DNA of 64,000 bases from a virus (IMGVR_UViG_3300031555_010858:138637-202636), one strand, 5' to 3'; shown: positions 4,515-61,876, numbered from the stretch's first letter. Translations and numbers: made by a program. The notes: generated from the letters alone by a model not told the origin.

Positions 4515-4526
4515 TATCTATTTGTT
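4515..4526 (-). promoter_or_regulatory. AR9-type late promoter AACA-N6-TA
   Basis: AACA-AATAGA-TA upstream of LRR paralog 2. Confidence 0.65.
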
Positions 4527-4545
4527 TTTAGATAAAAGATTAATA

Positions 4546-7500
4546 TTATTTCCTTCCAGCTTTACCAAATTGAATTGGTGAATTACTTACAACCATTTCA
4601 ACTCTGTACTTACCTTCAGTTGTTTGATATTTATCAAACGCATTTCTCATTCCACTCATTCTATTTTCAGGTAATTCATCCTCAGATAATTCACCTTCAA
4701 ATATGTTTACATTTTTAAGTTCGTGCATATTTTCTTCTGTCCAACCATCTGCAAACCCACCAAGTACCGAGAATAAACTTTCAACTTCAGATAGAGATAT
4801 AATAACAGATGAATTAGCAGCTATATCCACACCTTTACCATCAGCATTTTGTACTTCACTATTATATATTCCTATTTTTATAGGTTTATTATTAAAGTTA
4901 ACTATAGTTATAGGTTCATTTGTTATGTCATGTGAATTATAAACATATGCAACATAATTATCAACAGAATCTATAAGTTTTTCCCATCCAATTCTGTCCA
5001 TTAAGTTAACCATAGTTCTTCCGTAGAATTTAGGTCTAATAGAATTATCTTCTAATATTTCTCCTGTTTGTATAGGAGCATTAGCTTCTTCTGATAATTC
5101 AATAGAGAATTGTTGATTAGAAACGTTCACAACAGAATCTCCTTGTATTACATCTATAATCATATTACCATCAGAATCAACTCTATTTGTAGAAGCAGTT
5201 GGGTCTGACATATAAAGTACTCCATTTTCATAAAGTTCTACATCTATATTAGCTCTTGGTAAATCAATTACTTCTGTATAAGGTTCTGCTAGTTCATATA
5301 CTATAGTAACAGGATTTTCTTTAAGTTCGTTAGTAAATTCAGAAAGTGATTTAATTTCTTCTTTAGATACTCTGATATAAATAATATTTTTAAAGTAAAT
5401 ACCCAAGCCATCTATTTCATTGTTATTTTCATCAAATTTAAATAATCCAGCTTTATTGAAATCTATAGACTCTGTTGATATATAAATATCTGATTTTATA
5501 TTACAAATTATGTTATTTGTAGCATTATTATAATGGATTCTTCTAGAATAATAAGTGGCATGTGTAGCAGTATCAGTTCCATTATTATTCCAACTTTCAT
5601 CACTACTTCCGTCTAAAACAACTATTTCCATATTATGAACATGACATAATTTACCATCTACGACTTTAATTTCATCACCTTCAAGAAGTGGTGAGCTAAG
5701 TAATAATCTCTCTGCGTTTTCTAGTTGTATACTGTAAGTTATATGATCGTATTGGTCTAGTGATGCTATTTCATCTGCTGTTAAATGAGTTCCTATCCAT
5801 ATAGTAATTGGTTGTACTGGTGTCATTCCTGCTACTATATTAATAGTTCTTACATCACAGTGAACCATACCTATATCTGTTAAATTAGCAAGTTCATTAT
5901 TTTCTACGTATAAGAACTTAGTATAAGAAATACCTTCATGTATAATCATATTAGATATATCAATTGATTTAAGTTTTGCTGTTTTATCATTATTAAAGTA
6001 TAAGAAATCCTCCGCAGTGTTACAACTTTCACCAGTAAATGATGATAAATCTAACCTTTCAATTTCAAAACAATCGCCAATAAAGTCTTTAAATGTTGTT
6101 ACTTTACTAGTATCCCAATTACTTACATCAATATTTTCTAGTTTGTAAGCGTTTTTAAATACATAATTCATATAAGTTACTTTACTAGTATTAAAATTAC
6201 TTACATCTAATGAAGTTAATTTACTACAACCATTGAACATAGAACTCATATTAGTTACTTTACTAGTATCAAAATTACTTACATCTAATGAAGTTAAATT
6301 ATTACAATTATCGAACATAGCATACATATTGGTTACATTACTAGTATTCCAATTACTTACATCTAATGAAGTTAATAATTTACAATTAGAGAACATAGAA
6401 CCCATATTAGTTACTTTACCAGTATTCCAATTACTTACATCTAATGAAGTTAAATTATAACAACCATGGAACATAGAACCCATACCAGTTACATTACCAG
6501 TATCCCAATTACTTACATCTAATGAAGTTAAATTATAACATTCTTGGAACATAGCATGCATATCAGTTACATTACTAACATCCCAATTACTTACATCTAT
6601 TGAAGTTAAATTATAACAATGTTGACACATCGCTATCATATCAACAGTATTACTTACATCCCAAGTACTAGAATTTACTTTACGTAAGTAAGCATTACGT
6701 CTAAACATAGCCATCATATTAGTTACTTTACTAACATCTGCATATAAAATTTCCAATAAACTTTCATATTCTTTTCTTTGGTCAGTTGCACTGTCAATCC
6801 AGTATGTACCAAATCTCATTACTGTAGGTAATTCTCCTAAACTCCAAATAGTTCTCTTAATCAATGTCTTAACAGTACCATCAGCAGCTTCTCCTTCAAT
6901 CTCTTCATCATCTATAAAGTAGTTTATAAACTCAGCGTTGAAGTCAGGTATTAATGAAGCCCAAACATCAGGGTCGTATACATACTCAGCAACTTTAATA
7001 AATGAATCAGAAGTAACAACAGTCCAGTTCTTAGCTGCTAGAGCTGCTAGTGTTTCTTCAGATATTTCAGCATCTGATATTAATATACCAGGTTCTAATT
7101 CTGTAGTGACAGTATTAACTACCGGAACTAATTCAGGTTCTTCGTAATCTAATTCAAGAGTCATGATATCATTTTCGTACGAAGGTTTTGGTAATTCATA
7201 AGTTGTAATATTTGTAGTAACAGAACTTCTATCTGGAATCATATATAAAATACGATTTATAGTATCAATATTATCACATCTAATATATCTAACATATAGA
7301 TGAATATTACCATTTACTCCTATCAATTTATTTATATTTCCATCCGTACAATTTGAAATATCCAAATTTTTCATGTCTAATAATTTTAAATTATCAGCAT
7401 AAGCAAAAATAGAGATCATATCAGTTACTTTACTAGTATCCCAATTAGATAAATGAATATTAGATATATTATCACAACCACAGAACATAGCATACATATT

Positions 7501-10500
7501 AGTTACTTTACTAGTATCAAATCCACTTACATCTAATGAAGCCATTATTAAACAATCAGCAAACATATTTCTCATATTAGTTACTTTACTAGTATCAAAA
7601 TTACTTACATCTAATGAAGTTAATGATCTACAATTAGCGAACATATATTTCATATTAGTTACATTACTAGTATCAAAGTTACTTACATCTAATGAAGTTA
7701 ATGATTTACAGTCATGGAACATATAACACATATCAGTTACTTTACTAGTATCGAATCCACTAACATCAATTGTTTTAATTCCAATACATCCATAGAACAT
7801 ATTATGCATATCAGTTACTTTACTAGTATCAAAATTACTTACATCTAATGTAGTTAATGAATGACAACAATGGAACATATGATTCATGTCTGTTACATTA
7901 CCGGTATTAAATCCACTAACATCAACATATGTCAGTTTTTGACAACCTGTGAACATTTGACGTGTACTCGTCATTTTTTCAGTTTTCCAATCACATGATA
8001 TTTTATTTACTGAAAATACATAGCCGAACATATTTTCACCAGTAGTAAGTTCTCGTGTATCCATATCATAAACTTCCAATAATGCGTATGTGAAAACATT
8101 ATCAGTACCAAATCTCATCATTGTAGGTAACATATTACTTTCTATAGTTCTATGCATAATCCCTTGTCTTTCATTTAAGTAATCAAATACTTCAAAATCA
8201 GTAAATTCATCATTAAATACAGGTAAATAGTCGTTAGCTATTATACTATCATAAGCATAATGAGCAATCATTCCTTTTAATCCCCATCCTAATCCTTCGA
8301 TTACTCCTCTTTCTTCTTCAGTTAAGTCATGCACATGACTACTTACAAGTTCTTTAACATTGGCAAAATTATTATTTTCATCATTTAATATATTCATAAA
8401 TATTTCATTTTGAATATCTTTTACCCTTATTTTACATAATTTATTACATCCAGCGAACATTCCTTCATATGAAGTAATTCCATCATATTTCATTCCATAA
8501 ATATCAAATAATTCTAAGTTAGAACATCCTTCAAACATATGAGAAACATTTGTAGGTGTTTTTTCTCCAACACAAATATTTAGATAATTTAAATTAGTAC
8601 AGTTTTTAAACATTTCAGAATAATCAGTTATTCCAGTTAAGTTAATATCACCAATTTGCATTAATGCATTAGTTCTAGCATCTGGTTCATCTCCACCAAA
8701 TTTAATTGATGTAGGACGTTTACCTTCAAAGTTCATTATATCTCTATGAACAAAATATCCACCGTGAACATGATCAGATATTACTAAAGCTGATGTATCA
8801 TAATCTTCATTGAATAATGGCATTAAGTCGTTGTGTACAGTATTATCAAATCCATAAGCTGCAACTGTACAATCATCAATTGAATGAGCTTCCCAGTTTT
8901 TAGCTTTAATTAAATTAATATTTGTAATTGTAAGTCTTGCAGGATTATAAGTTACAACATGACCTTTATTAACTGTCGTTTTAGTTGGTAATTGATCCAT
9001 TATATTTATTAATGAAGGAACATCATCTAGTTTTAGATATTTTATAGGTATACCATCAAACATGTTACCCACAACACAATCGGCATTAATTGTAAAGTTT
9101 GATATATCTAATATTGTTAAGTTGTAACATGCATTAAACATACTTTCCATATTAATTACTTTACTAGTATCAAAATTACTTAAATCTAATGAAGTTAATG
9201 ATTGACAACCTTTGAACATAAATCTCATAGTAGTTACTTTACCAGTATCCCAATTACTTAAATCTAATGAAGCTAGTGATTGACAATATTGGAACATGAA
9301 ATTTGTGTTAGTCACTTTACTAGTATTCCAATTACTTACATCTAACGATGTTAATTTATCACAATTTTGGAACATACCTTGTGTAATTAATACATTACTT
9401 GTATCCCAACCTTCAGTATTTAGATATACTAAATTACGACAACCATGGAATGTTTGTTGTATATTGTCAGTTTTATTTGTAATAACCACACCATCAACTT
9501 TTATTAAGTTTCTACAACATCCAAATAATCTATATAAGTATGTACAGTTTTCTATATCTAAATATTTAACTTCCAATAACGAATCACTTCGATTATCGAT
9601 TATATCCCATACTCCCGTACCAAATCTAAGATAAGACGGTTTTTTCTCTTTTACATTATATATTTTTCTTCTTATTACTCTTCTAGAACTTGGTTCTTCT
9701 AATGTCATTATTCCATAATTTTCTTCGTCTATACCTAAAGTTTCAACTTCTTCGCTAGTTTCTTCTACAACATAGTTTTCAATAGTTTCATCTACTATAA
9801 CGCAACTATTTAAATAATTTCCTGAAAATGGAAGTAAACTAGGATAAATTTCTGGATCAAATATATAATCTGCAACTAACATACCTATTTCAGAAGTAAT
9901 TTCCCAGTTCTTTTCTGCTAATAATTCCATACATTCTTTATCTATTTTATCACCTGCTGTAGTAAGAAGTATACCATGTTCTTTACCAGTTCTATCAGGT
10001 ATTAATGGGATTATCTTATGTATAGTACCAATTTTATTACAGCTTATCAATTCTAGATTTTTTGTAGTCATAAATATTGTTTCATAACTAACTACATTAC
10101 TAATATCCATTTGTGATATATTTAGGTTTGTTAAAGACTCCATATCGTTAAATAAATAATCGCATTGTATACCATTATTATATTCCAATTTATCTAATAT
10201 AAAACTAGAACAGTCTAAATATGTTATAGATTTACAACCTGCGAACATAGCAGCGACATATTTAACATTTGTAGTATTAAACCCATTTAAACTTATTTCA
10301 GTTAATGAATGACAATAACGGAACATATAACATATATTTTCAAGCTTATTACTAAAGCTCCATCTACTTATATCTAATGAAACTAATGATTTACAACCAT
10401 TGAATAATGATGAAACATCAGCTATATTACTAACATCCCAATTGCTTATAGGTAATGTTGTTATTTTGTCACAGCCTAAGAACATTGCACCCATAAATCG

Positions 10501-13500
10501 CACATTACCAGTATCCCAATTTTCTAAACCTATAATTTCAGTTAATGAAGATGGATCTCTATCCCATTCAAGACCAGCAAACGTCCAACTCATATTAGTT
10601 ACATTACTAGTATCAAAACTACTTACATCTAGCGAAGTTAATTTTCTTAATCCACGGAACATACTTACCATTTCAGTTACATTAGCAGTATTCCATGTAC
10701 TTATATTTAATGACTCTAAATTAAAACATCTATAGAATAATCCATTCATAAGTCTTACGTTACTAACATCCCATTTACTTAAGTCTAACGAAGTTAATGC
10801 ATTACAGTTAAAGAACAATTGTCTCATATCGTTTACTTTTCCAGTATTAAAATCTTCTATACCTTTTATTTCTTTTAATAATGGACAGTTATCAAACATA
10901 CCATTCATAGTTTCAACTTTACTAGTATTAAAATTACGTAAATCTAAATATTCAACATTTAACCAATAGAACATACAAGCCATATTAGTTACTTTACTAG
11001 TATTAAAATTACTTACATCTAATGAAGTTAATGAAGTACATTTATAGAACATATCTTGCATATTAGTTACATTTCTAGTATCAAAATTACTTACATCTAT
11101 TGAAGTTAATTTATTACAACCAGAGAACATACCTCTCATATTAGTTGCTTTACTAGTATCCCAATTACTTACATCTATTGAAGTTAATTTAATACAATCA
11201 GTAAAAACGTGAGACATATACATTACATTACTAGTATCCCAATTACTTACATCTAATGAAGTTAAATTAATACAATGTTGGAATATTGCTCCTAAATATT
11301 CCACTTTATTTGTTACATTAAATTCATTTACTCTTACTAAATTCACACAAGCTCTAAACATTGCAGACATATTAAATAAACCTTCAACGTTAACATATTC
11401 AACATCTATCAAGCTATGACTTCTAGGTTGATATTTTACATCATCTTCTTCGTTTATCCATATATGACCAAATCTCATAGTTGTAGGTAATTCACGTAAT
11501 GTGTATAAAGTTCTAGTTACTAAGTTTCCGTCTATAACATCGTTCCAGAAATATCCGTCATAATCACCATATTCATTAGATGATGGATTATTAAATTGAG
11601 GAACGTGACTAGAATAAATACTCTTATCGAATGTATACGAAGCTAATTTAGTACCATCCTCTTCTAGGCTAACTATATTCCAGTTTTTACTATTAAGTAC
11701 TGATAATATTTCATTAGTAACGCTAGCTGTAGTTATTAAACAACCTGGTGCTTCTACGGTTCTTACTGGTAAATAATTAACTATTTTATTAAGTGTACCT
11801 GCTATATCACATCTTACATATCTGATATTAGGTGAATTTTTCATGCATAAACCTAAATCATCTTCAGCATTAGTTAAATCAAATCCACCAAAATCTATAG
11901 TTGTTAATTCGTGACAGTTTTTTAAGAATCCATGTATTGGTTGACCGTTTTCTGTATAAACAATATCAACGATATTAACATGCTTTTTAGGGAAATAAAT
12001 TGTTTTTACCTTATTTAATCCACTTATACATACTGATGCATTTATTGAATTATTAAAGTCCCATCCACTGATATCTACATTAGTAAGAGAAGTACAATTA
12101 TGAAGTATAGCATGTATAGATTCAACGTTACTTACATCCCAATTACTTATATTTATATCATTTAATTTAGTACATGATTGGAACGTATTTTCCATAGTAG
12201 TTACATTACTAGTATCCCATTTACTTACATCTCCTATAGTAGTTAATGATATACAATAATGGAACATCATTCTTAAACTAGTTACTTTACTAGTATTCCA
12301 TTTACTTACATCTAATGTTTTTAAATTAGTACAACTATGGAACATATAATGCATATTAGTTACATTACCAGTATTCCAATTACTTACATCTAATGTTGTT
12401 AATGATTTACATCCTTTGAACATATAACCCATATCAGTTACATTTCCAGTATCCCAATTTTCACCAAATGTTATACTTCTTAAGTTAGTACAATCACAGA
12501 ACATCTCATATATATGTATTGGTGCAAAATTCCATTTACTCATGTCTAATGAAGTTAACGACTGACATAATTGAAACATTTCTTGAGAGCTTTTTAATGC
12601 ACTAACATTCCACTTAGACACATCTAATGAAGTTAATTTGTTACAATTATAAAACATAGCCCAACTATTAACTAATTTACCAGTATCAAAATTACTTACA
12701 TCTAATGAAGTTAAACTATAACAATTGGAGAACATAGCGTCCATTTTGGTTACTTTACTAGTATTCCAATTACTTACATCTAATGAAGTTAATTTGTTAC
12801 AAGCTCTAAACATTCCCCCCATATTATCTACATTTCTAGTATCCCAGTTACTTACATCTATTGAAGTTAAATTATTACACCCATCAAATAAATTAAGCAT
12901 ATTAGTTACATTACTAGTATTCCAATTACTTACGTCTAACGCTGTTACATTGTTACAATTAGCGAACATATTATTCATAGTAGTTACTTTACTAGTATTC
13001 CATCTAGATACATCTAATGAAGTTAATGAGTTACATGAGTAGAACAATCTATCCATAGTAGTTACATTTCTAGTATCCCAATTGGAAACATCTAATTCTG
13101 GTATGATACTACAGCCTACAAATGCACTTGACATATTAGTTACACTACTAGTATCCCAATTACTTACATTTAGAGATTCTAAACTATTACAACAATCAAA
13201 CATATTATTGATTGTTGTTACATTATGTGTATCCCAATTACCTAAATCACCAACTGTTGTTAATTGAGGACAATGTTGGAACATATGATTCATATTAATT
13301 ACATTACTAACATCCCAGTTACTTACATCTAATGAAGTTAGTTTTTGACATTTTCTAAACATCCAATGAGATTGTAATAAACTTTCAGTATTCCAATTAC
13401 TTACATCTATTGAAGTTAATTCTAAACATTCATTAAACATATAATACATATATGCTACATTTCTAACATTCCAATTACTTACATTTAACCCATTTATTTT

Positions 13501-16500
13501 TTGACAATAAGAGAACATAGCTCCCATACCAGTTACTTTACCAGTATCCCAGTTGCTTATATCTCCTACCGTAGTTAGCATATAGCAGTTATCAAATAAA
13601 CTAGTCATATCAGTTACATTACTAACATCCCAGTTACTTAAATTTAATTCAGTTATAATTCTACATGCAGCAAACATATATCTCATAGTAGTTACTTTAC
13701 CAGTATCCCAATTACTTACATCTAATGAAGTTAATGATTGACAACCATGGAACATATTACTCATAGTAGTTACTTTACCAGTATCCCAATTACTTACATC
13801 TAATGAAGTTAAATTATAACAATTACCAAACATCACACTCATATCAGTTACATTACCAGTGTCCCAGTTACTTACATCTCCTATTGAAGTCAATTCATTA
13901 CACCCGTAGAACATATGACTCATAGTAGTTACATTACTAGTATCAAAATTACTTAAATCTAATGAAGTTAATTTATTACAAATATTGAACATTGAACTCA
14001 TATTAGTCACAATACTAGTATCAAAATTACTTAAATCTAATGAAGTTAATGATCTACAATCATAGAACATAGCATACATAGTAATTACTTTACTAGTATC
14101 AAAGTTACTTACATCTAATGAAGTTAAAGATTGACATTCACGGAACATGCCATCCATAGTAATTACTTTACTAGTATCAAAATTGCTTACATCTAATGAA
14201 GTTAAAGATTGACATCGCATAAACATTTTATCCATACGAATTACATTTCTAGTATCCCAATCACTTATGTTAAGTTCTTGTAAACTTGTACATGAATTAA
14301 ATGTATGACTCATATCAGTTACATTACTAACATCCCAATTATTAATACCTATTATAGTTGTTAAAGAATTACAACCTTTGAATAATCCTTTAAAATCTTC
14401 ACCTGCCGTAACACCTAAACTAGTTACTTTATTAGTATTCCAATTAGAAACATCTAGTGAAATTAAAGAATTACAATAACAGAACATACCTGCTATATTT
14501 TCAAGAGAATCCATAACCCAATTTTCCATACCAATAATTTCAACTAAGTTGTTACATGAATTGAACATTTGTTGAGTAGTTTTAACTTTTCTCATATCCC
14601 AATTAGTTGTATTTATTCTAACTAAACTCGGACAGAAACCAAACATAACATTCATATTAGTTACGTTACTTACATCCCAATTAGATATATCACCAACATC
14701 AATTAAATTAGTACAACCTTGGAATAAACAATGCATATTAGTTACTTTACCAACATTCCAATTACTAACATCTATTGTTGTTATTAATCTACAATTAAAA
14801 AATGTATTACGCATAGTAGTTACATTACTAGTATCCCAATTACTTACATCTATACTTTGTAATTTTTCATTCATGTGAAATAAATTATCTATATTAGTTA
14901 TTTTACTAGTAACTAAATCACTAATTCCATCTATTATTTCTAATCTATAACAATTTTGGAACATATTTCTCATATCAGTTACTTTACCAGTATTCCAATT
15001 ACTTAAATCTAACGATGTTAATGATTGGCAATTATAGAACATATTATACATATTAGTTACATTACTAGTATCCCAATGACTTACATCCAATGACTGTACT
15101 AAAAAACAATCTCTGAACATATTATCCATACTTGTAACTCTACTAGTATTGAATCCACTTACATCTAATACTTCTAATGAATTACAATAAATAAACATGT
15201 ATGTCATGTCAGTTACTTTTGCAGTATTAAATCCACTCACATCTAATAATTTCAATGATTTACAGCTGTTAAACATACCACGCATATTAGTTACTTTATA
15301 TGTCTTCCAATTTGTTACGTTTAACGTTTCTAGTTGTTCACATTCATTGAACATACCTTGCATATTGGTTACATTTTCAGTATTCCAGTTATCTACATCC
15401 AGTTTAATTAATGAATTACATTTACTGCATAAATATTTCATATCAGTAACTTTAGCAGTATTCCATCCAATCACATCTACTGATTTCAGTCCATAACAAT
15501 TTTGAAATAACGCATTCATATTTGTTACATTTCCAGTATTCCAATTACCTATACCATTTATTTCTGTAAGCACATTACAATCTTTAAACATCATAAACAT
15601 ACTAGTTACATTTCCAGTATCCCATTTACTTAAATTATCTAATGTTTGTAAAGCGTTACATCCATTAAACATACTTTGCATACTAGTTACTTTGCTAGTA
15701 TTAAAATTACCAACACCTGTTATAGTATGTAATTTGTTACAATCATTGAACATTCTATACATACTAGTTACATTTCCAGTATTCCAACTAGATACGTCCA
15801 ATGAAGTTAATTCATAGCATCTCCAGAACATTTCAAACATATTATTTATATTTTTAGTATTCCAATTTTCAATACCTATTATTTCAGTAAGAGCATTACA
15901 TTGAGAGAATAAACCTCTATCAACGTTATCAATTTTACCTACTATATGTTGTACTCCACTAACGTTAAACCCACTTACATTTAACGACTTCAATGATTTA
16001 CAATCAGCAAACATAGCCATCATTGAATGCAATGTGTTTCCTGTAACCCAAGTGCTTAAATTTAAATTTGTTAATTTTTCACAACCATAGAACATATAGT
16101 CCATTTTAGTTACTCTATTAACAGTTAAGTTTTCTATACCAATTATAGAAGTTAAGTTAATACAATCTTTAAACATATTTGATGTATATAATAACCTAGG
16201 TGTATTGAAATTACTTACATTTAATGAAGTTAAACCTGTACAACCCATAAACATACCAGTCATATTAGTTACATTATCAGTATCAAAATTAGTTAAATCT
16301 ATATTATTAAGCGTTGTACAATTTGCAAATGTATTTTGTAAAATCTCAACTTTACCAGTATCCCAAGTTATTATTCCTGAAATATCTTGTAATTTTTTAC
16401 AACCATTAAAGGTATTCATCATATCTGTAACATTTGTTACATTAAGATTTTGTAATCCTATTATTTCTGTTAACTCTTCACATTCTAAGAACATATATCC

Positions 16501-17434: not shown

Positions 17435-17446
17435 TATCTATTTGTT
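17435..17446 (-). promoter_or_regulatory. AR9-type late promoter AACA-N6-TA
   Basis: AACA-AATAGA-TA upstream of the 4283-aa gene; identical to the paralog's copy. Confidence 0.65.
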
Positions 17447-17500: not shown

Positions 17501-18115
17501 TTACTCTATTCCGTTTATTATATTTTCAATATCTGTATCTGTAACCTCAGGGCATTTACAAATTGGCTCAATAGGTTTTCTAGGAATAATAGATATTTTT
17601 CTTTCACCTTCTACTATTACAAACTCACCGAATAATAAATAAGTTTGATCACCAAGTTTAACATCAACACCATTAACTCCAAGAATACTTTCATCAAATT
17701 CCATATAGTTTCCAAATCCATCATCTTTAACAGCTATTAAGTCAAAGATTACTGGAATAGCAATTACTATAAATTGCCCTTGTTTTACATTTCCTAACGG
17801 TACTGTTCTTTGACCTGGTTTAGTTGTCATAAACTTATCATTATTAAACATGTCTATTGTTATATCCTTAAATGAATGAACATTTCCAACATCTTGAGGA
17901 TCTAATATACCATAATACATTGGAGCAGTTACATCATATTCAGGAACTGTGAATATTTGTAATAAATCATTAACTTCATTGATAGAACCTAAAATAGTTT
18001 TATCATCAGTTTTTAATTGTTCGAAGTTTTTACCTTCAATTTCAGCTCTAATTTGATTAGCTAAATTTATAACAAATTCTTCTGTAGCTAAAGTAACTAC
18101 TTTTTTAGCACCCAT
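17501..18115 (-). CDS. Probable tail fibre-associated protein
   Basis: LKTDDKTILGSINEV matches the LxTxxKxxxGAINE motif common in Firmicute phage fibre proteins; lies between the collagen and LRR genes. Confidence 0.6.
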   Translation of the reverse strand: MGAKKVVTLATEEFVINLANQIRAEIEGKNFEQLKTDDKTILGSINEVNDLLQIFTVPEYDVTAPMYYGILDPQDVGNVHSFKDITIDMFNNDKFMTTKPGQRTVPLGNVKQGQFIVIAIPVIFDLIAVKDDGFGNYMEFDESILGVNGVDVKLGDQTYLLFGEFVIVEGERKISIIPRKPIEPICKCPEVTDTDIENIINGIE

Positions 18116-18138: not shown

Positions 18139-18150
18139 TATAGGCTTGTT
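18139..18150 (-). promoter_or_regulatory. AR9-type late promoter AACA-N6-TA
   Basis: AACA-AGCCTA-TA. Confidence 0.6.
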
Positions 18151-21100: not shown

Positions 21101-22436
21101 TTATCTCTCCAAATCTAGTGTATCCATTTGCTCCACCAGCAATAGCAAAGTTAATTATACATCCATCGTTTATTTCCATTCTTCCTTTATTTACTACGCC
21201 GAATCCTCCAGTTCCTACATAAGCGTTTCCGTTACAAACTACATTGTTAAGTTTTATATCAACTTCATGGATTATAAGTTTTTCAGGTTGTTTTTTATCT
21301 ATAGGTTTTTCACAATCACCGCAGCATATTTGTTCAACTTGACAATTTTCCATAACTAATTCTGCTTTTCCTATATTACCTTCAAAATATCCACCTACAT
21401 TAACACCATATATTTTAACATTTCTAACATCTAAGAATGTGTTAGGTAGAACTCTTCTTATTTCATGTTTTCTTGGTCCATAACCACCATATATTATAGT
21501 TTTAGGAGCATCTTCAGCAAGTATTGCTATATAACAGTGTTTTTGATTAAATTTATATCTCACTATAATAGAATCTTCTGGTTCATTTTCATCATATTTA
21601 TGATCTTTATTAATATCAACAACTGTTGGATAACCACACATAAATACTCTATTATAATTGTGTAAGTATTCTACATAAGGTTCATCGTCTAATAATAACT
21701 CTCTAATTTCTTCATCATTATAAACTAATCTATCTATTTCTTCTTCAGTGAAATAATCAACACCTTTGATAGGAGTATATCCTGGTTCACCTGGTTCTCC
21801 TTTAGGTCCTGCCACACCAGCTGGTCCTTGTATACCTTGAGGTCCCATTGGTCCTTGTGCACCAACAGGTCCTTGTGGTCCTCTTAGATTTTCTAACTGA
21901 TCTAACGTGAAATCACTAAATTTAAACGGATCTCCTTTAGGTCCAGGCTCACCTTGAGGTCCTTGTGGTCCAACCTCACCTTGAGGTCCAGTTAACAGTT
22001 CTAATTGTTCTATAGTAAAATCTTCATATTTAAAAGGCTCACCTTGAGGTCCTTGTGGTCCAACCTCACCTTGAGGTCCTACTAAAGCTGCTAACTGTTC
22101 TTCTGTAAAATCTTCATACGTAAATGCTTTTCCATTAGCTTGTAATGATTCTAACCATTCTTCTACAGTACCTTCGAATCCATTATCAACGGCAAGTTCA
22201 TACGCAGATTTACCATTTTCACCAGCAGTAGCTTCTCCACCACCAACAGATATCCATTCACCAGGCATTCCACCTTTAATACATACGAATATAGGTTCTG
22301 TTGCTTGAGTTTCACCTATGTTTACAATTATATCTCCCTTACGATACACTATTTTATTATTGGCAGTTGGTATACTATCACCAATAAAAACAAATCGTGA
22401 AGATTGATAAAATTCTCTTTCATCGTAATTACTCAT
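18156..22436 (-). CDS. Collagen-like (Gly-X-Y) phage fibre protein
   Basis: Long [10 protein letters not shown] runs interrupted by FKYEDFTxEQLxxL, [24 protein letters not shown] and [15 protein letters not shown] motifs. ATG at 22436 is better spaced from SD AAAGGTG than the track start at 22451. Confidence 0.85.
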
Positions 22437-22483: not shown

Positions 22484-22495
22484 TACCTAATTGTT
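22484..22495 (-). promoter_or_regulatory. AR9-type late promoter AACA-N6-TA
   Basis: AACA-ATTAGG-TA upstream of the collagen gene. Confidence 0.65.
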
Positions 22496-22905: not shown

Positions 22906-22936
22906 TAAATATTTGTTGACATGAAACAACTAATTA
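22906..22936. promoter_or_regulatory. Back-to-back AR9-type late promoters (holin-like gene and endolysin)
   Basis: AACA-AATATT-TA on minus (22906-22917) and AACA-ACTAAT-TA on plus (22925-22936). Confidence 0.65.
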
Positions 22937-25232: not shown

Positions 25233-25290
25233 TATTAATTTGTTATACTATATATAATTTTTAATAAGATGCTTCAAAAACAAGTTATTA
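25233..25290. promoter_or_regulatory. Divergent AR9-type late promoters
   Basis: AACA-AATTAA-TA on minus (25233-25244) and AACA-AGTTAT-TA on plus (25279-25290). Confidence 0.65.
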
Positions 25291-28765: not shown

Positions 28766-28777
28766 AACAATTATTTA
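28766..28777 (+). promoter_or_regulatory. AR9-type late promoter AACA-N6-TA, inside an inverted repeat
   Basis: AACA-ATTATT-TA overlaps the right arm of hairpin 28738-28773. Confidence 0.6.
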
Positions 28778-31675: not shown

Positions 31676-31697
31676 ATATGATCCGTAATTCGTAGGA

Positions 31698-31723
31698 TTT
31701 CGATACCATATTATAACAATGAA
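31698..31723 (+). promoter_or_regulatory. Early-type phage promoter motif
   Basis: TTTCGATACCATATTAT-AACAA-TGAA; one of six copies. Confidence 0.7.
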
Positions 31724-31755
31724 ATACGATAATAATATATTAATGGAGGTAAGTT

Positions 31756-34425: not shown

Positions 34426-34437
34426 TACTAAATTGTT
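34426..34437 (-). promoter_or_regulatory. AR9-type late promoter AACA-N6-TA
   Basis: AACA-ATTTAG-TA. Confidence 0.6.
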
Positions 34438-34488: not shown

Positions 34489-34638
34489 CAAAATTAAATA
34501 TGAGTTTATGGGAGGTTTTTGGGTTAAGTTGTTCATTGAAAATGAACGTACCGTCCTAACCCAAAGTCAATTATTAACAACTTATTTTTCCACTCCTCCC
34601 TTTGGAGGGAGTCGTTTCGTTAATTAATGCTTTGCATT
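34445..34638 (-). ncRNA. Candidate ~190-nt structured small RNA
   Basis: Own AACA-N6-TA promoter (34638-34649), three GC-enriched stem-loops, then a 16-bp terminator stem with U6; no convincing ORF. Confidence 0.55.
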
Positions 34639-34649
34639 AATAAGTTGTT
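34638..34649 (-). promoter_or_regulatory. AR9-type late promoter AACA-N6-TA heading the candidate sRNA
   Basis: AACA-ACTTAT-TA. Confidence 0.55.
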
Positions 34650-34736: not shown

Positions 34737-34748
34737 AACATTATGATA
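34737..34748 (+). promoter_or_regulatory. AR9-type promoter AACA-N6-TA
   Basis: AACA-TTATGA-TA upstream of the nuclease operon. Confidence 0.6.
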
Positions 34749-36961: not shown

Positions 36962-36973
36962 AACATTATTATA
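36962..36973 (+). promoter_or_regulatory. AR9-type promoter AACA-N6-TA
   Basis: AACA-TTATTA-TA upstream of the DnaB-like helicase. Confidence 0.55.
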
Positions 36974-41805: not shown

Positions 41806-41817
41806 AACAAATGTCTA
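41806..41817 (+). promoter_or_regulatory. AR9-type promoter AACA-N6-TA
   Basis: AACA-AATGTC-TA, in tandem with an early-type motif. Confidence 0.55.
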
Positions 41818-41834
41818 AAGTGTAAAACGTAAAA

Positions 41835-41860
41835 TTTCAGTACTATATTATATAAGTGAA
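41835..41860 (+). promoter_or_regulatory. Early-type phage promoter motif
   Basis: TTTCAGTACTATATTAT-ATAAG-TGAA. Confidence 0.7.
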
Positions 41861-41936
41861 TATAGAAAATAATTATAATACATTTCTATGTTCCATGAAT
41901 AAAAAATATATTAAAATTATTAGGAGGTAACAACTT

Positions 41937-42412: not shown

Positions 42413-42446
42413 AATAGAGGATAGAAATATCTATCCTCTATTTTTT
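42413..42446 (+). terminator. Intrinsic terminator
   Basis: AATAGAGGATAG / CTATCCTCTATT plus T-run. Confidence 0.7.
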
Positions 42447-42498
42447 ATGTTCCAAATAACAATTTAACACCAAAATAAAATTATTAGGAGGTAATAAT

Positions 42499-43520: not shown

Positions 43521-44327
43521 ATGCCAAATTGGTGTTCTAATAATATAACTGTGAAAGGTCAAGGTAAATATGTTAAAGAATTCATACAAGATAATTTTAA
43601 AACTAATAAGAATCCTTATGATTCGAATTCTAAAGAATATGATTACATTTTAGATTTTGAACAATTTGACCCAACACCATTAGATGATGCGGGAGAAGTA
43701 TTCAGTGAATGGTATACATGGAGATTAGAACATTGGGGATGTAAATGGTCCCCAAGTTATGAACAACAAGTGTATCTTATGATAGAAAAAGAAGGTGAAG
43801 AGCCAATTCAAATATTTAATGAAGGACATCATTTACATGAAGAAAATCAAATATTCAATGAAGAATTTGTTAAGAATTTAGATACAGATTGTATCATGAC
43901 ATTAGAAATACATTGTTATTGTGAAACACCATGGGGACCACCAGATAATATATTTAGAAGATGGGCTGAAAAATATAGTGAACATTTAGAAGCTAGTCTA
44001 AAATTCTATGAACCTGGATGTACAGTCATGGGTGAATTTATGTTTAAAGGAAACGAATATGATGAGTATTATGCTGATTATGATAAAAGAGCAGATTGGA
44101 TATTATATGCCTTAGAAGAAGGTTGGGAAACAACTGAATGGTATATAGATGAATGTATGGATATGATATCTGAAATGCATGATACGAAAGACGAAGTTGA
44201 AGCTATTATGAATAAGGTTAGTGATGTATTAAAGGTATGCAATAATAAACAAGCAGCATCTTTAATAGCTGATATTACAAATAAATATTTTGATTGGTTA
44301 CATGAACCTAAAGGGGAAGAAGTGTAA
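43521..44327 (+). CDS. DUF1281/YubB-like protein
   Basis: MPNWCSN, WYTWRLEHWGCKW, TPWGPP and FYEPG motifs. Confidence 0.7.
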   Translation: MPNWCSNNITVKGQGKYVKEFIQDNFKTNKNPYDSNSKEYDYILDFEQFDPTPLDDAGEVFSEWYTWRLEHWGCKWSPSYEQQVYLMIEKEGEEPIQIFNEGHHLHEENQIFNEEFVKNLDTDCIMTLEIHCYCETPWGPPDNIFRRWAEKYSEHLEASLKFYEPGCTVMGEFMFKGNEYDEYYADYDKRADWILYALEEGWETTEWYIDECMDMISEMHDTKDEVEAIMNKVSDVLKVCNNKQAASLIADITNKYFDWLHEPKGEEV

Positions 44328-44336
44328 TTCATAGGT

Positions 44337-44362
44337 TTTTGATACCATATTATAAATGTGAA
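44337..44362 (+). promoter_or_regulatory. Early-type phage promoter motif
   Basis: TTTTGATACCATATTAT-AAATG-TGAA. Confidence 0.7.
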
Positions 44363-44421
44363 TATAGATAAATAAGATATCTATATTCACATAAAAATAA
44401 AATAAATGGAGGTAATAATTT

Positions 44422-44721: not shown

Positions 44722-44792
44722 AAAAGTTTAATAGTATAAATTAGTATGTTCCAAATAAAACAAATATAAAAAATATTGGGAGGAATAATTAT

Positions 44793-46026: not shown

Positions 46027-46052
46027 GTATGTTCCTTTGTAAAAAGGTTAAT

Positions 46053-46078
46053 TTTCAATTATATATTATAACAATGAA
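46053..46078 (+). promoter_or_regulatory. Early-type phage promoter motif
   Basis: TTTCAATTATATATTAT-AACAA-TGAA. Confidence 0.7.
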
Positions 46079-46109
46079 ATAAATAAAAAAAAATATTGGA
46101 GGTATTGTT

Positions 46110-46947: not shown

Positions 46948-46959
46948 AACAAATAAGTG
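46948..46959 (+). promoter_or_regulatory. AR9-type promoter AACA-N6-TG
   Basis: AACA-AATAAG-TG upstream of the endonuclease-gyrB-gyrA unit. Confidence 0.55.
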
Positions 46960-52736: not shown

Positions 52737-52748
52737 AACAAATCAATA
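52737..52748 (+). promoter_or_regulatory. AR9-type promoter AACA-N6-TA
   Basis: AACA-AATCAA-TA. Confidence 0.6.
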
Positions 52749-53928: not shown

Positions 53929-53954
53929 ATACCTTATGGTATCTATCTTTTTTT
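53923..53954 (+). terminator. Intrinsic terminator
   Basis: AGATAGATACC / GGTATCTATCT plus T-run. Confidence 0.7.
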
Positions 53955-53963
53955 ATGTTCCAA

Positions 53964-53975
53964 AACAATTGACTA
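53964..53975 (+). promoter_or_regulatory. AR9-type promoter AACA-N6-TA
   Basis: AACA-ATTGAC-TA upstream of the RNAP-subunit operon. Confidence 0.65.
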
Positions 53976-55232: not shown

Positions 55233-55949
55233 ATGATAGATAAAGCTAGAAGAAAAGAAATGGAAAATTTAATTTATAATTTCTTTGATTTATTTGATCC
55301 ATCTGGTAGAAATACAGAATATTATAGAAATTTATTTAAAGGTATGGACGATGCTAAATTTGATAACTATTTTAAAAACTTATTTAAACAAGATGATCCA
55401 TATCTAACAGCTACTATGGTGGATTATGAGAATCCATTATTAATAGAAAATATAGAAAAAGCTGCTAAGTTTTTAAAAGTTCCTTTATTTGAAAGAGTTG
55501 TATTACCATATGCAAGTGAAGATCCAAGTAAACCTGTAATAACAAAGCATGAGTGTTTAGTTGGATATCTTAATATGAAACGTCTACAACAAATAAACTT
55601 TAAGAAATTAGGACTTTCTACAGACATAAGTGAAAGAAATATGATAACTGGTCAGGTTACAGGTCATGATAAAAACTCAAGAAACTCAGACCAAGAAACT
55701 ACTGCATTACTTACTTATGGTGCTAACGTATCACTAAAAGAATTAATGTCTATGAGAGCTGATGATAAGGTAATGAAAGACGAAATGAATAAAAAAATTG
55801 CTAGAGATGGTTATGTTGCAATGAACGAATTAACAGATAAACTTTCTAATAAAACTACTTTAAACTCTGCAGCAGTATTCTTTATGGGTGCAGGATTAAT
55901 GACTGACCTTGTAATGAATGATTATATGTTACCTAAAACATTAGATTAG
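55233..55949 (+). CDS. Split multisubunit RNA polymerase beta subunit, C-terminal fragment (phiKZ/AR9-type, probably virion RNAP)
   Basis: VGYLNMKRLQQ...RNMITGQVTG...SRNSDQETTALLTYGANVSLKELMSMRADD aligns by eye with RpoB GYMYxLKLxH...YSLVTQQPLGG...QRFGEMEVWALxAYGAxxTLQEMLTVKSDD. Confidence 0.75.
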   Translation: MIDKARRKEMENLIYNFFDLFDPSGRNTEYYRNLFKGMDDAKFDNYFKNLFKQDDPYLTATMVDYENPLLIENIEKAAKFLKVPLFERVVLPYASEDPSKPVITKHECLVGYLNMKRLQQINFKKLGLSTDISERNMITGQVTGHDKNSRNSDQETTALLTYGANVSLKELMSMRADDKVMKDEMNKKIARDGYVAMNELTDKLSNKTTLNSAAVFFMGAGLMTDLVMNDYMLPKTLD

Positions 55950-55980
55950 AATATGCCTTTTGGCATATTCTTTTTTTTTT
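55948..55980 (+). terminator. Intrinsic terminator
   Basis: AGAATATGCC / GGCATATTCT plus T-run. Confidence 0.75.
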
Positions 55981-55993
55981 GTAATTCTCATAA

Positions 55994-56019
55994 TTTCAAT
56001 ACCATATTATGTACATGAA
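55994..56019 (+). promoter_or_regulatory. Early-type phage promoter motif
   Basis: TTTCAATACCATATTAT-GTACA-TGAA. Confidence 0.7.
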
Positions 56020-56048
56020 TAAGACAAATAATTAAGGAGGATGGTAAT

Positions 56049-56735
56049 ATGAAACATACATTAAATATATATTTAGAGACAAAAGGAAGACAATTTAAAG
56101 AAATAAATGAAAAAGAATTAGATAGATTTATAGAAATAACAATAGAAAAATATAAAAAGTTTGATGGAGCACATGATGATAAACATGCAAGAATGGTTAT
56201 AAAGAACTCAGAATATATAGCAGCAAACATGATGAAAGACGAGAAAATAAAATTAGATATGAGAATGGTTAAAGTAATAGCAGCAATGCACGATTTAGGA
56301 TTAGCGTATGATAGAGAAACACACCATACTAAATCAGGAGAAATAGTAAGAAAAGAAAAAGAATTAAGAAGATTCTTTTCAGAGGAACAAATAGAATTAA
56401 TAGCAAAATCAGTAGAAGAACATAGAGCAAGTTATAAAGGTGAGTATACAAGTGTTTATAGTAAAATAGTTTCAGATGCAGATAGAATGAATGATATAAA
56501 CACAATGATAGAAAGAACTTATAAATGGAATAGAAAACATTATCCAGATAAAAATGATAAAGAAATATATGATGAAGTAATATCACATTTACAAGATAAA
56601 TATGGAGAAAAAGGATATGCTAGATTTAATACAAAATATGCAGAAGACGTATTAAACCAATCAAGAAAAATAATAATGAATAATGAAGAATTCGATAAAA
56701 TATATAAAGATATGTATGGAATGCCATGGAAATAA
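56049..56735 (+). CDS. HD-domain phosphohydrolase
   Basis: HxxxH, AAMHDLG, HH, EHRAS and SDADR motifs. Confidence 0.85.
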   Translation: MKHTLNIYLETKGRQFKEINEKELDRFIEITIEKYKKFDGAHDDKHARMVIKNSEYIAANMMKDEKIKLDMRMVKVIAAMHDLGLAYDRETHHTKSGEIVRKEKELRRFFSEEQIELIAKSVEEHRASYKGEYTSVYSKIVSDADRMNDINTMIERTYKWNRKHYPDKNDKEIYDEVISHLQDKYGEKGYARFNTKYAEDVLNQSRKIIMNNEEFDKIYKDMYGMPWK

Positions 56736-56770: not shown

Positions 56771-56782
56771 AACAAATATTTA
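56771..56782 (+). promoter_or_regulatory. AR9-type promoter AACA-N6-TA
   Basis: AACA-AATATT-TA upstream of the lipoprotein. Confidence 0.6.
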
Positions 56783-56800: not shown

Positions 56801-57280
56801 ATGAAAAAGATGATAATTGGAAAATTGATAAAAAACATAGCAATTATAGGTTTAGCCCTTATTTTAACTTTATGTTGTTTAGGGTTAACAGGATGTCAAA
56901 ATAATGAACCTGAACCATCAAAAGAAAATATTCAACAAGAACTTGATGTTGTTGTTTTAGAACAAGAATATTTCGCAATAATGAGATTGATAGATAATGT
57001 ATTATTTACAATAACAGAGGACGAAGATTTAACAATGAACGATGCCATTAAGTTATTTGATTATATGACAAAAAATAGAATCAAACCAACACAAAAACTA
57101 ACTATAGAATTAGATAAATGCTTAGACGATTTAATGGATCTAGGATTAAAATATACAATAGCTGCAAATGAACAAGAAAAAACTAAAGTAGCAGAAGAAA
57201 TAACATTAATATTAAATAGAATGAATGAACTAATGATTGAAATAGAAGAAATAATAAATAATAATTACGAGTTTATATAA
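56801..57280 (+). CDS. Lipoprotein
   Basis: Basic N-terminus, hydrophobic core and lipobox LTGC. Confidence 0.75.
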   Translation: MKKMIIGKLIKNIAIIGLALILTLCCLGLTGCQNNEPEPSKENIQQELDVVVLEQEYFAIMRLIDNVLFTITEDEDLTMNDAIKLFDYMTKNRIKPTQKLTIELDKCLDDLMDLGLKYTIAANEQEKTKVAEEITLILNRMNELMIEIEEIINNNYEFI

Positions 57281-57295
57281 TTTTATTTATGGTAT

Positions 57296-57307
57296 AACAA
57301 ATTAGTA
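57296..57307 (+). promoter_or_regulatory. AR9-type promoter AACA-N6-TA
   Basis: AACA-AATTAG-TA upstream of the sortase substrate. Confidence 0.6.
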
Positions 57308-57354
57308 AATAAAATAGCAACGAGGTAAAAAATAATTTAAAAGGAGAGATTTAT

Positions 57355-58209
57355 ATGAATAAAAAAATTAAAAGTTTATTAGTAGCAGGATTATTAGTAG
57401 TAGGAATGGGTTTTGGAACAGTTGATTCATATGCCGCAGAAATGACGAATAGTATAACAGAATTTAATTATGTTGACATAGATGGTGGACCTGTTGCAAG
57501 TGTTCACAGTCTTGAAGATGGAAACATAACGATAACTATTCGTAATGTAGGTGGATATTCAGGACACCCAGAAGGAACACATGAAATTTCTGCAAATTGG
57601 GATACAACTAAGATAGATATGAAGTCTATAGACGTAGTAACTATGTATAATGCTATAGAAGAAAGTAAACAAACAACTAAGTTAGAACTACAAGATGGGA
57701 AGGCTTTTTTACGTATTAAAGTTGACATAGAGCAAGCTATCGATGCAATTAATCTTGAATACGAATTAGCTGGTAGTTCTAGTGGAGAAGAACAAGAACC
57801 AACTGTATCATTTGACGATGCTGAACAAAAGGTTATAAATAAATACAGAGAATCTATGGCAGCAGTTGGTGTTTTAAATAATGGGGAAAGACAAATAGAT
57901 ACAAGTTTTATGATAGAAAAGAAAGCTTGGCTTGAGTTTATAGAAGGTGTAAACGAAGCTGATAATTATGTTACAATAGAAGAAGGAAATGAAAAAGGAG
58001 AATATCACGTATATACAAATGTAAGTGAAGAAAAGAAACTTATTGAAGTTATATTTATAGATTTCTTTGAATCAGATGCAAAAGGATGGGTGCCTGAAAT
58101 AACTCCTGGAACTGGGCAAGCAATAGCAGTAGGTGGAATGGCTGTGCTTGCAGCTGCAGGTGTAGGATTATTAGTTAATAATAAAAAGAAAAAAGATGAA
58201 GAAAAATAG
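57355..58209 (+). CDS. Secreted, sortase-anchored cell-wall protein
   Basis: Sec signal peptide (MNKKIKSLLVAGLLVVG...SYA); C-terminal sorting signal TPGTG, TM helix and KKKK tail. Confidence 0.8.
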   Translation: MNKKIKSLLVAGLLVVGMGFGTVDSYAAEMTNSITEFNYVDIDGGPVASVHSLEDGNITITIRNVGGYSGHPEGTHEISANWDTTKIDMKSIDVVTMYNAIEESKQTTKLELQDGKAFLRIKVDIEQAIDAINLEYELAGSSSGEEQEPTVSFDDAEQKVINKYRESMAAVGVLNNGERQIDTSFMIEKKAWLEFIEGVNEADNYVTIEEGNEKGEYHVYTNVSEEKKLIEVIFIDFFESDAKGWVPEITPGTGQAIAVGGMAVLAAAGVGLLVNNKKKKDEEK

Positions 58210-58211
58210 GT

Positions 58212-58245
58212 TAGAAAGAGCCTTTTAGGCTCTTTCTATTTTTTT
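58212..58245 (+). terminator. Intrinsic terminator between the sortase substrate and sortase
   Basis: TAGAAAGAGCC / GGCTCTTTCTA plus T-run. Confidence 0.7.
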
Positions 58246-58262
58246 ATTGGGAGTTGATTAAT

Positions 58263-58916
58263 GTGAGAAAAATATTTAGATGGTTAATTAATATAATATT
58301 GATAATGGTAATTATAGTTTATGCTCAACCTATAATTAATGTTATTGAAGATAGTTATCAAAGTCATAAAGCATATAAAGAAGCAGCTAAAGAAAAAGAA
58401 GCATTATTAACTAAATTCGATTGGATTACTATTACGAATACTAAAATAAATTATCCTGTTGCATGGAAAGAAAAAGATAATTTTTATTACCTTTCACATG
58501 ATATATATGATAGAGAATCTAGCCACGGAGCTATATTCTATGAAGGATCAAGAGTTCCTTTTTCTAGTCATGTGACTATATTATACGGACATTGTATGAG
58601 AGATAAAAGCATGTTTGCAACATTACATTATTTACGTGAAGATGAAACTAAATTTAAAGAGTCTAATGTTGTTATAGAAAGATCTGATGGAACTATTAAA
58701 AAATATAAACCATTAGGATTATATGTAACAAATAACAATTTCTATTATACTAAGTTATGCTCTATACCGTTAGGTGAAGGTATACAAACTATCCAAGAAA
58801 ACTCCAAATATTTTATACCAACGTTATATGATGAAGACGATGAAATATTAGTTCTTATGACATGTTCATATGAACATGAAGGTGATAGATTATTTGTATT
58901 TTATATATCGGAATAA
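58263..58916 (+). CDS. srtB: Class B sortase
   Basis: N-terminal TM anchor; WITI..TKINYPV, DNFYYLSHD, GAIF, ILYGH, MF..L and LMTC...R (His-Cys-Arg triad). GTG at 58263 or TTG at 58254. Confidence 0.85.
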   Translation: MRKIFRWLINIILIMVIIVYAQPIINVIEDSYQSHKAYKEAAKEKEALLTKFDWITITNTKINYPVAWKEKDNFYYLSHDIYDRESSHGAIFYEGSRVPFSSHVTILYGHCMRDKSMFATLHYLREDETKFKESNVVIERSDGTIKKYKPLGLYVTNNNFYYTKLCSIPLGEGIQTIQENSKYFIPTLYDEDDEILVLMTCSYEHEGDRLFVFYISE

Positions 58917-58992: not shown

Positions 58993-59523
58993 ATGAAAAA
59001 GAATTTAAATGGTTATGGAAAACAATTTAAAGGAAATCATAGTGACGAACCTACAGATAAACAAAAGAATATTATTAAGAAATTAAGAGCTTATTATGGA
59101 TTTAATAAGATTCCTGAATGTGAAACAAAAGGAGAAGCGTGGATGCTTATTAATAAATATCAACATGTAGTAAAATATGATAAAGTAAAAAATGAATTTT
59201 ATATTGAAGACAACGTAGTAAATAATAAAACATGTTATAGAATGATAAACGAAGATGAATATGAATGTCTAAGATTAGTTAAACAAATGAGAGATTTATT
59301 AACAGGAAAAGAGCTAGATGATTATGAAGAACTTATAAGTTATCTAGGAGATTATTCAATAATAAAAGAAGTTTCACAATATATGATAGAACAGAGAATA
59401 AAAGCAGAAGCTGAGATGGAAGATGAAGAATTCGATTATGACGACGATTATGATATGTATGATCCTTATGATATGTCTACATGGGATGACAATGATTGGA
59501 TAAATTTTGAATTAGAACATTAA
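58993..59523 (+). CDS. Hypothetical early protein with acidic C-tail
   Basis: ATG at 58993 after SD GGAGGT; directly after an early-type promoter. Confidence 0.7.
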   Translation: MKKNLNGYGKQFKGNHSDEPTDKQKNIIKKLRAYYGFNKIPECETKGEAWMLINKYQHVVKYDKVKNEFYIEDNVVNNKTCYRMINEDEYECLRLVKQMRDLLTGKELDDYEELISYLGDYSIIKEVSQYMIEQRIKAEAEMEDEEFDYDDDYDMYDPYDMSTWDDNDWINFELEH

Positions 59524-59575
59524 AATAGCCAGTAATTTAAATTAAAATAAATAAAAAAATTTAGGAGGTAATTAT

Positions 59576-60826: not shown

Positions 60827-60828
60827 TT

Positions 60829-60859
60829 AATAAGGAGAGAAATCTCCTTATTATTTTTT
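60829..60859 (+). terminator. Intrinsic terminator after infA
   Basis: AATAAGGAGA / TCTCCTTATT plus T-run. Confidence 0.65.
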
Positions 60860-60870
60860 ATGTTCCAAAT

Positions 60871-60882
60871 AACAAATATTTA
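60871..60882 (+). promoter_or_regulatory. AR9-type promoter AACA-N6-TA
   Basis: AACA-AATATT-TA. Confidence 0.6.
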
Positions 60883-61819: not shown

Positions 61820-61821
61820 TT

Positions 61822-61852
61822 GTTAATAAGGATTATATCCTTATTAACTTTT
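61822..61852 (+). terminator. Intrinsic terminator
   Basis: GTTAATAAGGAT / ATCCTTATTAAC plus T-run. Confidence 0.65.
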
Positions 61853-61864
61853 TATTTGTTTAAT

Positions 61865-61876
61865 AACAACTAATTA
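61865..61876 (+). promoter_or_regulatory. AR9-type promoter AACA-N6-TA
   Basis: AACA-ACTAAT-TA upstream of recA. Confidence 0.65.

Follow-up and report, generated by a model that had tools for sequence, protein, structure and literature searches.

The non-virion RNA polymerase (nvRNAP) of Bacillus phage AR9 is the textbook example of an RNA polymerase (RNAP) for which promoter recognition takes place in the template strand and depends on uracil in that strand, the uracils at −11 and −10 of the AR9 promoter being obligatory (PMC5449584, PMC9209446). Val206 of its gp226 subunit excludes the thymine methyl at −10, the V206G change relaxes this exclusion, and the valine is invariant in the gp226 homologs of uracil-DNA phages (PMC9209446). 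Reviews hold that uracil DNA keeps the polymerase of a jumbo phage without a nucleus away from host DNA, and phages have previously been called “putative uracil-DNA” on the strength of a gp226 homolog. Here we analyse a 64,000-nt window, the final 64 kb of one IMG/VR viral record of 202,636 bp (IMGVR_UViG_3300031555_010858; G000), in which the motif AACA-N6-T(A/G) recurs before genes. We assign a probability of about 0.72 to the reading that this motif is the late promoter of an AR9-type nvRNAP in a jumbo phage of about 275 kb, most likely on thymine DNA. Feature coordinates are window positions unless marked “genome”.

A preliminary description listed 21 exact AACA-N6-T(A/G) sites, all of which were found at their coordinates and strands. 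It placed them a short way upstream of co-oriented gene starts, and 19 of the 21 indeed lie 19–86 nt before a start codon; the exceptions are 34638 (−), without an open reading frame (ORF) behind it, and 41806 (+), 120 nt upstream with an early-type promoter between. Four more sites were recovered (31715, 42466, 46070 and 59516, all +). Two single-base variants noted at 40115 (GACA) and 62875 (TACA) are present, 19 and 17 nt before start codons, but are indistinguishable from chance. Raw window-wide over-representation was rejected as an argument, since the 124 matches are slightly fewer than the 155 ± 11 in dinucleotide shuffles, and the case is therefore made on position and strand only. Genes preceded by a gap of 40 nt or more were scored for a motif within −90 to −11 and compared with a first-order Markov null. 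Among the 35 such genes of the window, 22 have AACA-N6-TR in sense and 4 in antisense orientation, with a null of 2.8 ± 1.6 and a maximum of 9 in 1000 runs, so that the proposed positional and strand enrichment is borne out against a composition-matched background.

The same pattern extends beyond the window. On the whole 202.6-kb contig, 50 of 102 genes have the motif in sense and 11 in antisense, and 62 of 67 fully intergenic matches face a co-oriented start codon, 48 of these with the motif end 19–52 nt away from it. A merged genome, built from G000 and the overlapping IMG/VR record G001, gives 71 sense and 14 antisense genes (null 12.4 ± 3.5), and of the 256 possible 4-mers in the X-N6-TR frame, AACA takes the top rank in both G000 and the merged genome. 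AR9, as a positive control in the same test, gives 64 sense and 19 antisense (null 11.5), and two relatives sharing 66–90% gp226 identity give 66, 10 and 12.9 (G007) and 45, 13 and 9.3 (G008). The motif stands at an unchanged distance in 34 of 41 orthologs in G007 and in 19 of 30 in G008, compared with 2 of 43 and 4 of 28 control genes, while the flanks around conserved motifs have drifted to a near-random 30–50% identity. The refined consensus, a-AACA-A-N5-TA-a, is tighter than AACA-N6-T(A/G): TA, not TG, occurs at 52 of 53 sites of this late (L) class, 32 of 42 occurrences of AAACAA-N5-TAA are in promoter position, and no conserved −35-like element was found at the L-class sites.

A motif of such low information content, with 534 AACA-N6-TR matches genome-wide that fall mostly inside genes, could in principle be a regulator site, a signal in the 5′-untranslated region or at the RNA level, or a side effect of AT-rich composition between genes. 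We regard this as very improbable, given that the Markov null is exceeded several-fold, that the strand bias and the first rank of AACA go with a conserved orthologous position, that matching polymerase genes are encoded, and that the motif behaves identically in AR9, where 94 mapped late transcription start sites (TSSs) have it (PMC5312081). That AACA-N6-TA is a late promoter read by an nvRNAP–gp226 holoenzyme is, in our assessment, highly likely.

The preliminary description also called the phage AR9-like, which is supported by collinear blocks of AR9 genes, five nvRNAP subunits, virion RNAP (vRNAP) genes, and early and late promoter classes. Of 157 predicted proteins on the 202.6-kb contig, 48 match AR9, in long collinear blocks. 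The contig breaks off within a UvsX-like gene. The 45 kb that follow this gene in AR9 encode nvRNAP β-C, Ugi, nvRNAP β-N, capsid, terminase, sheath, portal and DNA polymerase. Record G001 overlaps the first 25,053 bp of G000 at 100% identity and adds 69.8 kb that encode homologs of all of these AR9 proteins except Ugi. The two outer contig ends lie 1.5–3 kb apart in two relatives, so a genome of about 275 kb is predicted and the IMG/VR label “provirus, 82% complete” reflects a broken contig; integration was rejected as its meaning, the contig being broken inside the genome with ends that continue in G001. As judged from gene content and order, the phage is a true distant relative of AR9, an uncultivated gut jumbo phage.

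An AR9-type nvRNAP had been predicted from the window, and its four split β/β′ subunits and a gp226-like specificity subunit were found in the genome. The β′-N subunit has the PF00623 domain and matches AR9 gp270 in PDB 7S01 (E 2e-35), β′-C is a homolog of AR9 g154, and β-N and β-C are on G001, where the β-C gene is clipped at the contig start. The gp226 homolog (503 aa, genome 4689–6200) aligns by phmmer to PDB 7S01_A (E 2e-11, residues 34–490 to 18–456), also matches phrog_25005, and lies in a GroEL-x-gp226-primase neighbourhood that is the same as in AR9. A Foldseek search with a low-confidence model of this protein returned 7S01_A as the top match and phiKZ gp68 as the third. Homologs of the vRNAP are also encoded.

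Genes outside the window do not favour the suggestion, made in the preliminary description, that the genome may contain uracil in place of thymine: thymidylate synthase (ThyA), dihydrofolate reductase (DHFR) and thymidylate kinase (Tmk) are encoded, a nucleotidase of the AR9 g151 type is without a match, and Val206 is replaced in the gp226 homolog. The ThyA homolog (PF00303, 5e-67; Bacillus subtilis ThyA 1B02, E 2.5e-47) retains both the catalytic Cys and the dUMP-specific Asn, its C-terminus is intact, and DHFR is the gene directly after it. Together with a dCMP deaminase (genome 88984–90195, +) and Tmk, the predicted route dCMP → dUMP → dTMP → dTDP is complete in phage genes. The deaminase is extended at its C-terminus by a fused domain of about 150 aa (phrog_8902), which its AR9 homolog lacks, and it has a partial NCBIfam match to an anti-phage dCTP deaminase model. 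ThyA is present in all four large relative contigs, including the 94%-complete G008, DHFR in most relatives, and Tmk in relatives too, whereas ThyA, Tmk and DHFR were found in none of the four reference phages (AR9, LPJP1, phiR1-37 and S6). Conversely, a direct protein query with AR9 g151, a 5′(3′)-deoxyribonucleotidase and the obvious candidate for the PBS2 dTMPase, found homologs in LPJP1, S6 and phiR1-37 but no match in G000, G001, G007 or G008. The direct query replaced PF06941 (NT5C), which was dropped as a marker as it misses even AR9 g151; the AR9 “kinase” gp209 was likewise rejected as a uracil-pathway marker, not being kept even among uracil phages. No homolog of AR9 g104 (Ugi) was found in eight relatives and no small ORF lies at the syntenic position, where an 804-nt gap considered for a small inhibitor proved to be a missed 262-aa gene. 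This absence is uninformative, because Ugi is known from Bacillus jumbo phages only (PMC10303552).

The gp226 homolog also departs from uracil-DNA phages in the pocket that selects uracil. Its 2.1bis helix reads DAQIWHQ, compared with D-x-V-I-W-x-[YF] in AR9, S6, phiR1-37 and LPJP1, so that the uracil-selecting Val206 and the G(−9)-stacking Tyr210 are both replaced by Gln. Across 17 clade members (64–93% identity), the Val206 position is Gln in eight, Ala in two and Leu in two, with one each of Val, Gly, Lys, Thr and Ile, while the flanking Asp and Trp are invariant and the flanking Gln is kept in 16 of 17. Valine is a minority residue at this position among 126 representatives of the 442-cluster gp226 family. 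On these alignments, the Val206 position appears unconstrained in the clade. Pocket residues of β-N were set aside as discriminators, R363 being conserved everywhere and K375 variable even among uracil phages. In public metagenomes, clustering of gp226-family homologs at 50% identity yields at least 442 clusters, a diversity far beyond the cultured AR9-group phages.

Several observations weigh against a thymine genome read by this polymerase, and some of them are shared with a rival reading in which this is a uracil-DNA phage like AR9, whose nvRNAP reads 3′-UUGU-5′ and whose thymidylate genes serve, for example, early manipulation of host pools. As in uracil phages, a dCMP deaminase is encoded and no dUTPase was found, and each of the five AR9 proteins that PMC10303552 ascribes to uracil-DNA phages exclusively has a homolog here; we read these as lineage markers. 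The uracil rival can further point to the promoter consensus, the same as that of AR9, to the encoded gp226 homolog, and to the fact that having no Ugi is usual outside Bacillus phages (PMC10303552). Also adverse is the AR9 structure: packing of the DNA backbone, and not Val206 by itself, keeps thymine out at −11. A single residue change is therefore insufficient to explain thymine tolerance, and any residue other than Gly keeps a C-beta, reported 3.9 Å from C5. AlphaFold2 (AF2) modelled the gp226 homolog poorly (predicted local distance difference test, pLDDT, 60), and no conclusions on pocket geometry were therefore drawn from it. Moreover, the template-strand reading would be carried over from AR9 by analogy, the case for thymine is one of gene content only, and the merged genome joins IMG/VR records from different samples with 1.5–3 kb still missing. 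Nevertheless, we consider uracil DNA unlikely. The clade keeps ThyA, DHFR and Tmk, dTTP synthesis would compete with dUTP, the nucleotidase common to four uracil phages is without a match, and the Val206 position is replaced and freely evolving. The clade has also been repeatedly assembled from ordinary metagenomes, in contigs of up to 264 kb, which is weak evidence; the DNA of LPJP1 failed standard library preparation (PMC8460666).

Less likely still is a genome in which a modified thymine (for example 5-hydroxymethyluracil or a hypermodified derivative) is made through the ThyA-family enzyme and read by the nvRNAP. The family PF00303 includes hydroxymethylases of dUMP and dCMP as well, at 312.6 bits the NCBIfam equivalog score falls just short of the 327-bit cut-off, and the pocket residue, being variable, could accommodate a larger group at C5. 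Set against this, the best matches of the enzyme are true thymidylate synthases, over the full length including the C-terminus; the DHFR gene that directly follows is needed only if a true thymidylate synthase yields dihydrofolate; and no hypermodification genes were seen, although no search was aimed at such genes. Ordinary thymine is, on the gene inventory, the probable base of the virion DNA.

On thymine DNA, the phage's own nvRNAP, composed of split β-N, β-C, β′-N and β′-C subunits and the sigma-like gp226-like subunit, would read AACA-N6-TA. By analogy with AR9, it would bind the complement of AACA in the template strand at about −11 to −8 and start at the final A. Because the dTMP/dTDP route is complete and the thymine-excluding valine is lost, the sequence read would be 3′-TTGT-5′.

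A second element, GTAAAAAGGT..ATTTCRAT...ATATTAT, was found at 29 intergenic sites, 28 of which carry G as the seventh base (+7) after ATATTAT. The AR9 early promoter is AAATATATATTAT-(6N)-G(+1) (PMC5312081), and by its matching architecture the element belongs to the AR9-type early (E) promoter class. E-class elements precede nvRNAP β′-C, the gp226-homolog gene and the β′-N operon; L-class elements stand before portal, sheath, major capsid, protease, tail fibres, giant leucine-rich-repeat (LRR) proteins and vRNAP β. In AR9, promoter class tracks gene class likewise, and tandem early and late promoters serve continuously expressed genes (PMC5312081). Some genes here are also preceded by both elements. 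The injected virion RNAP would read GTAA...ATATTAT-N6-G as the early promoter, and genes with both classes would be expressed throughout infection.

E-class promoters are followed by a conserved inverted repeat (GTGAATATAGA...TCTATATTCAC), for example at 44324–44395 and 41822–41894; as it lies directly behind the promoter, early transcripts would start with a 5′ stem-loop. A third upstream element, TATGTTCC(AAA), stands 36–54 nt before start codons, always co-oriented, at about 15 intergenic sites genome-wide (window sites in Table 1). It is often right behind a terminator T-run, with an AACA late motif often 3–5 nt further on, and it includes TATG, the phiKZ late-promoter core. Copies within coding regions stem from MF..C codons of DUF285 repeats. 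Possible roles of the element are a third (middle?) class of promoter or a processing site. The L-class motif without an ORF could head a small late RNA, for which 34638–34560 (−) is a possible candidate.

Table 1. Promoter-like elements and associated features in the window (L, late class; E, early class).
Feature	Position	Strand	Context
L-class promoter AACAAATAGATA	4515..4526	−	before 1483+ aa DUF285/LRR gene (3–4451); motif end to ATG 64 nt
L-class promoter	17435..17446	−	before 4283-aa DUF285/LRR gene (4546–17397); ATG 38 nt away
L-class promoter	18139..18150	−	before gene 17501–18115; 24 nt
L-class promoter	22484..22495	−	before collagen-like tail-fibre gene (18156–22451)
L-class promoter	22906..22917	−	before small minus-strand gene; divergent with 22925 site
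L-class promoter	22925..22936	+	before endolysin gene (22986–23867; Amidase_3 + SH3)
L-class promoter	25233..25244	−	before gene 24542–25222
L-class promoter	25279..25290	+	before 1134-aa gene 25325–28729
L-class promoter	28766..28777	+	before operon 28812–31647
Tandem E-class (GTAA...ATACCATATTAT-N6-G) and L-class (AACAATGAAATA, 31715–31726)	31685..31726	+	before gene 31756
L-class promoter	34426..34437	−	before virion structural gene 33448–34398
L-class motif without ORF	34638..34649	−	two hairpins and terminator-like stem behind (34638–34560)
L-class promoter	34737..34748	+	before operon 34776–36911
L-class promoter	36962..36973	+	86 nt before DnaB-like helicase gene 37059–39005
Composite: L-class motif 41806–41817, E-class 41822–41858, TATGTTCC 41887–41894	41806..41894	+	before gene 41937
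TATGTTCC 42446–42453, then L-class motif 42466–42477	42446..42477	+	before gene 42499
E-class promoter	44324..44360	+	before gene 44422
TATGTTCC	44745..44752	+	
TATGTTCC 46028–46035, E-class 46039–46076, overlapping L-class 46070–46081	46028..46081	+	before gene 46110
L-class promoter, sole TG variant	46948..46959	+	before operon 46985 / gyrase B / gyrase A
L-class promoter	52737..52748	+	before gene 52775
TATGTTCC 53954–53961 and L-class promoter 53964–53975	53954..53975	+	before gene 54015
Two genes, 55233–55949 and 56049–56735	55233..56735	+	homologous to parts of AR9 g078, HD-phosphohydrolase/virion-RNAP-associated protein
E-class promoter	55981..56017	+	between the two AR9 g078-like genes
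L-class promoter	56771..56782	+	before gene 56801
L-class promoter	57296..57307	+	before gene 57355
L-class motif AACATTAAAATA	59516..59527	+	48 nt before gene 59576; absent from earlier list
TATGTTCC 60859–60866 and L-class promoter 60871–60882	60859..60882	+	before gene 60909
L-class promoter	61865..61876	+	before UvsX-like recombinase gene 61906–62760 (AR9 g086 homolog)

The clostridial host proposed in the preliminary description receives modest support. The closest bacterial relatives of the endolysin are from Romboutsia, Faecalimicrobium and Clostridium (48–53% identity), and a sortase-domain gene (58254–58916, +) follows two small genes with late promoters, forming a cassette (56801–58916) that suggests phage-encoded cell-surface display and points to a Gram-positive host. 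From these genes, the host is predicted to be Gram-positive and probably clostridial. A tRNA scan for host hints returned none; it covered tiled loci that span most of the genome beyond the window, except for genome 116–117 kb and the final 14.8 kb of G001. The endolysin's best bacterial-genome match lies on JBGVED010000022.1, a 237,947-bp contig of a “Bacilli bacterium” fecal metagenome-assembled genome, which is probably another jumbo phage of the same clade binned as bacterial DNA. The phage further encodes giant DUF285/BspA-like LRR proteins (4283, 4440, 5058 and 1551 aa), all of them preceded by a late promoter, at window 3–17397 (−) and genome 41134–54456 and 121796–136972 (−), well over 40 kb in total. 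A 1431-aa collagen-repeat tail fibre (18156–22451) adjoins these genes.

We lean towards a broader interpretation in which the clade has a natural thymine-reading version of the AR9 template-strand system, the gp226 family resides mostly in thymine-DNA phages, and uracil dependence is derived in the PBS1/phiR1-37/S6/LPJP1 branch, so that gp226 would be no valid marker of uracil DNA. If true, this would be a non-nucleus thymine-DNA jumbo phage with two RNAPs of its own, outside the nucleus-or-uracil dichotomy. Confirmation would make the template-strand mechanism separable from uracil and would provide natural sequences for how the pocket accepts thymine, one lineage having the laboratory-made V206G change. 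It would also caution against reading DNA chemistry from promoters or gp226, and would reopen the question of how a short promoter tells phage from host DNA without uracil or a detectable chimallin nucleus. The full-text literature search found no report of a thymine-type AR9 system.

Compared with known systems, the closest correspondence is to AR9/PBS1, whose late promoters, served by gp105, gp089, gp270, gp154 and gp226, have the same AACA-N6-T-A(+1) core and no −35 element. The five-subunit gene set, gp226 synteny, start-codon spacing, tandem early/late promoters and late promoters before virion and vRNAP genes are also the same, at protein identities of 23–38%. The sites differ in detail: A is found at −7 in 79–90% here and 51% in AR9, at +1 in 98–99% here (AR9 84% A, 16% G), and at +2 in 59–85% here and 35% in AR9. 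A longer consensus that compensates for lost uracil discrimination was considered and rejected, since −7 and +2 add only about 1–1.5 bits; non-anchor information is similar, 1.5–3.1 bits here and 1.95 bits in AR9. ThyA, DHFR and Tmk occur here, whereas AR9 has the g151-type nucleotidase and Ugi, both without a match here. The AR9 early promoters have the same ATATTAT core, six bases and conserved G, and sit before nvRNAP and early-type genes; the E-class here differs in a conserved part that extends about 20 nt further upstream (GTAAAAAGGT..ATTTCRAT) and in its core, ATAC(C/T)ATATTAT or ATTATATATTAT.

The nearest cultured relatives by RNAP subunits are the other uracil-DNA jumbo phages, Yersinia phage phiR1-37, Staphylococcus phages S6/MarsHill and Listeria phage LPJP1 (about 28% identity), which share gp226 homologs and lineage-specific proteins with this phage. 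They differ in having D-x-V-I-W-x-[YF] and the g151-type nucleotidase and in being without ThyA, Tmk and DHFR. The phiKZ-type (Chimalliviridae) nvRNAP with gp68 is alike in its split multisubunit RNAP, fifth sigma-like subunit and thymine DNA; it differs in its TATG late promoter at the TSS and in the chimallin nucleus. A phmmer search with PhiPA3 gp053 (chimallin) gave no match in the merged, G007, G008 and AR9 proteomes, nor did tblastn in G007, G008 and AR9, a comparison at the sequence level only. The promoter code thus belongs to the known AR9 system, and what is new here is its probable thymine context together with the unconstrained pocket residue.

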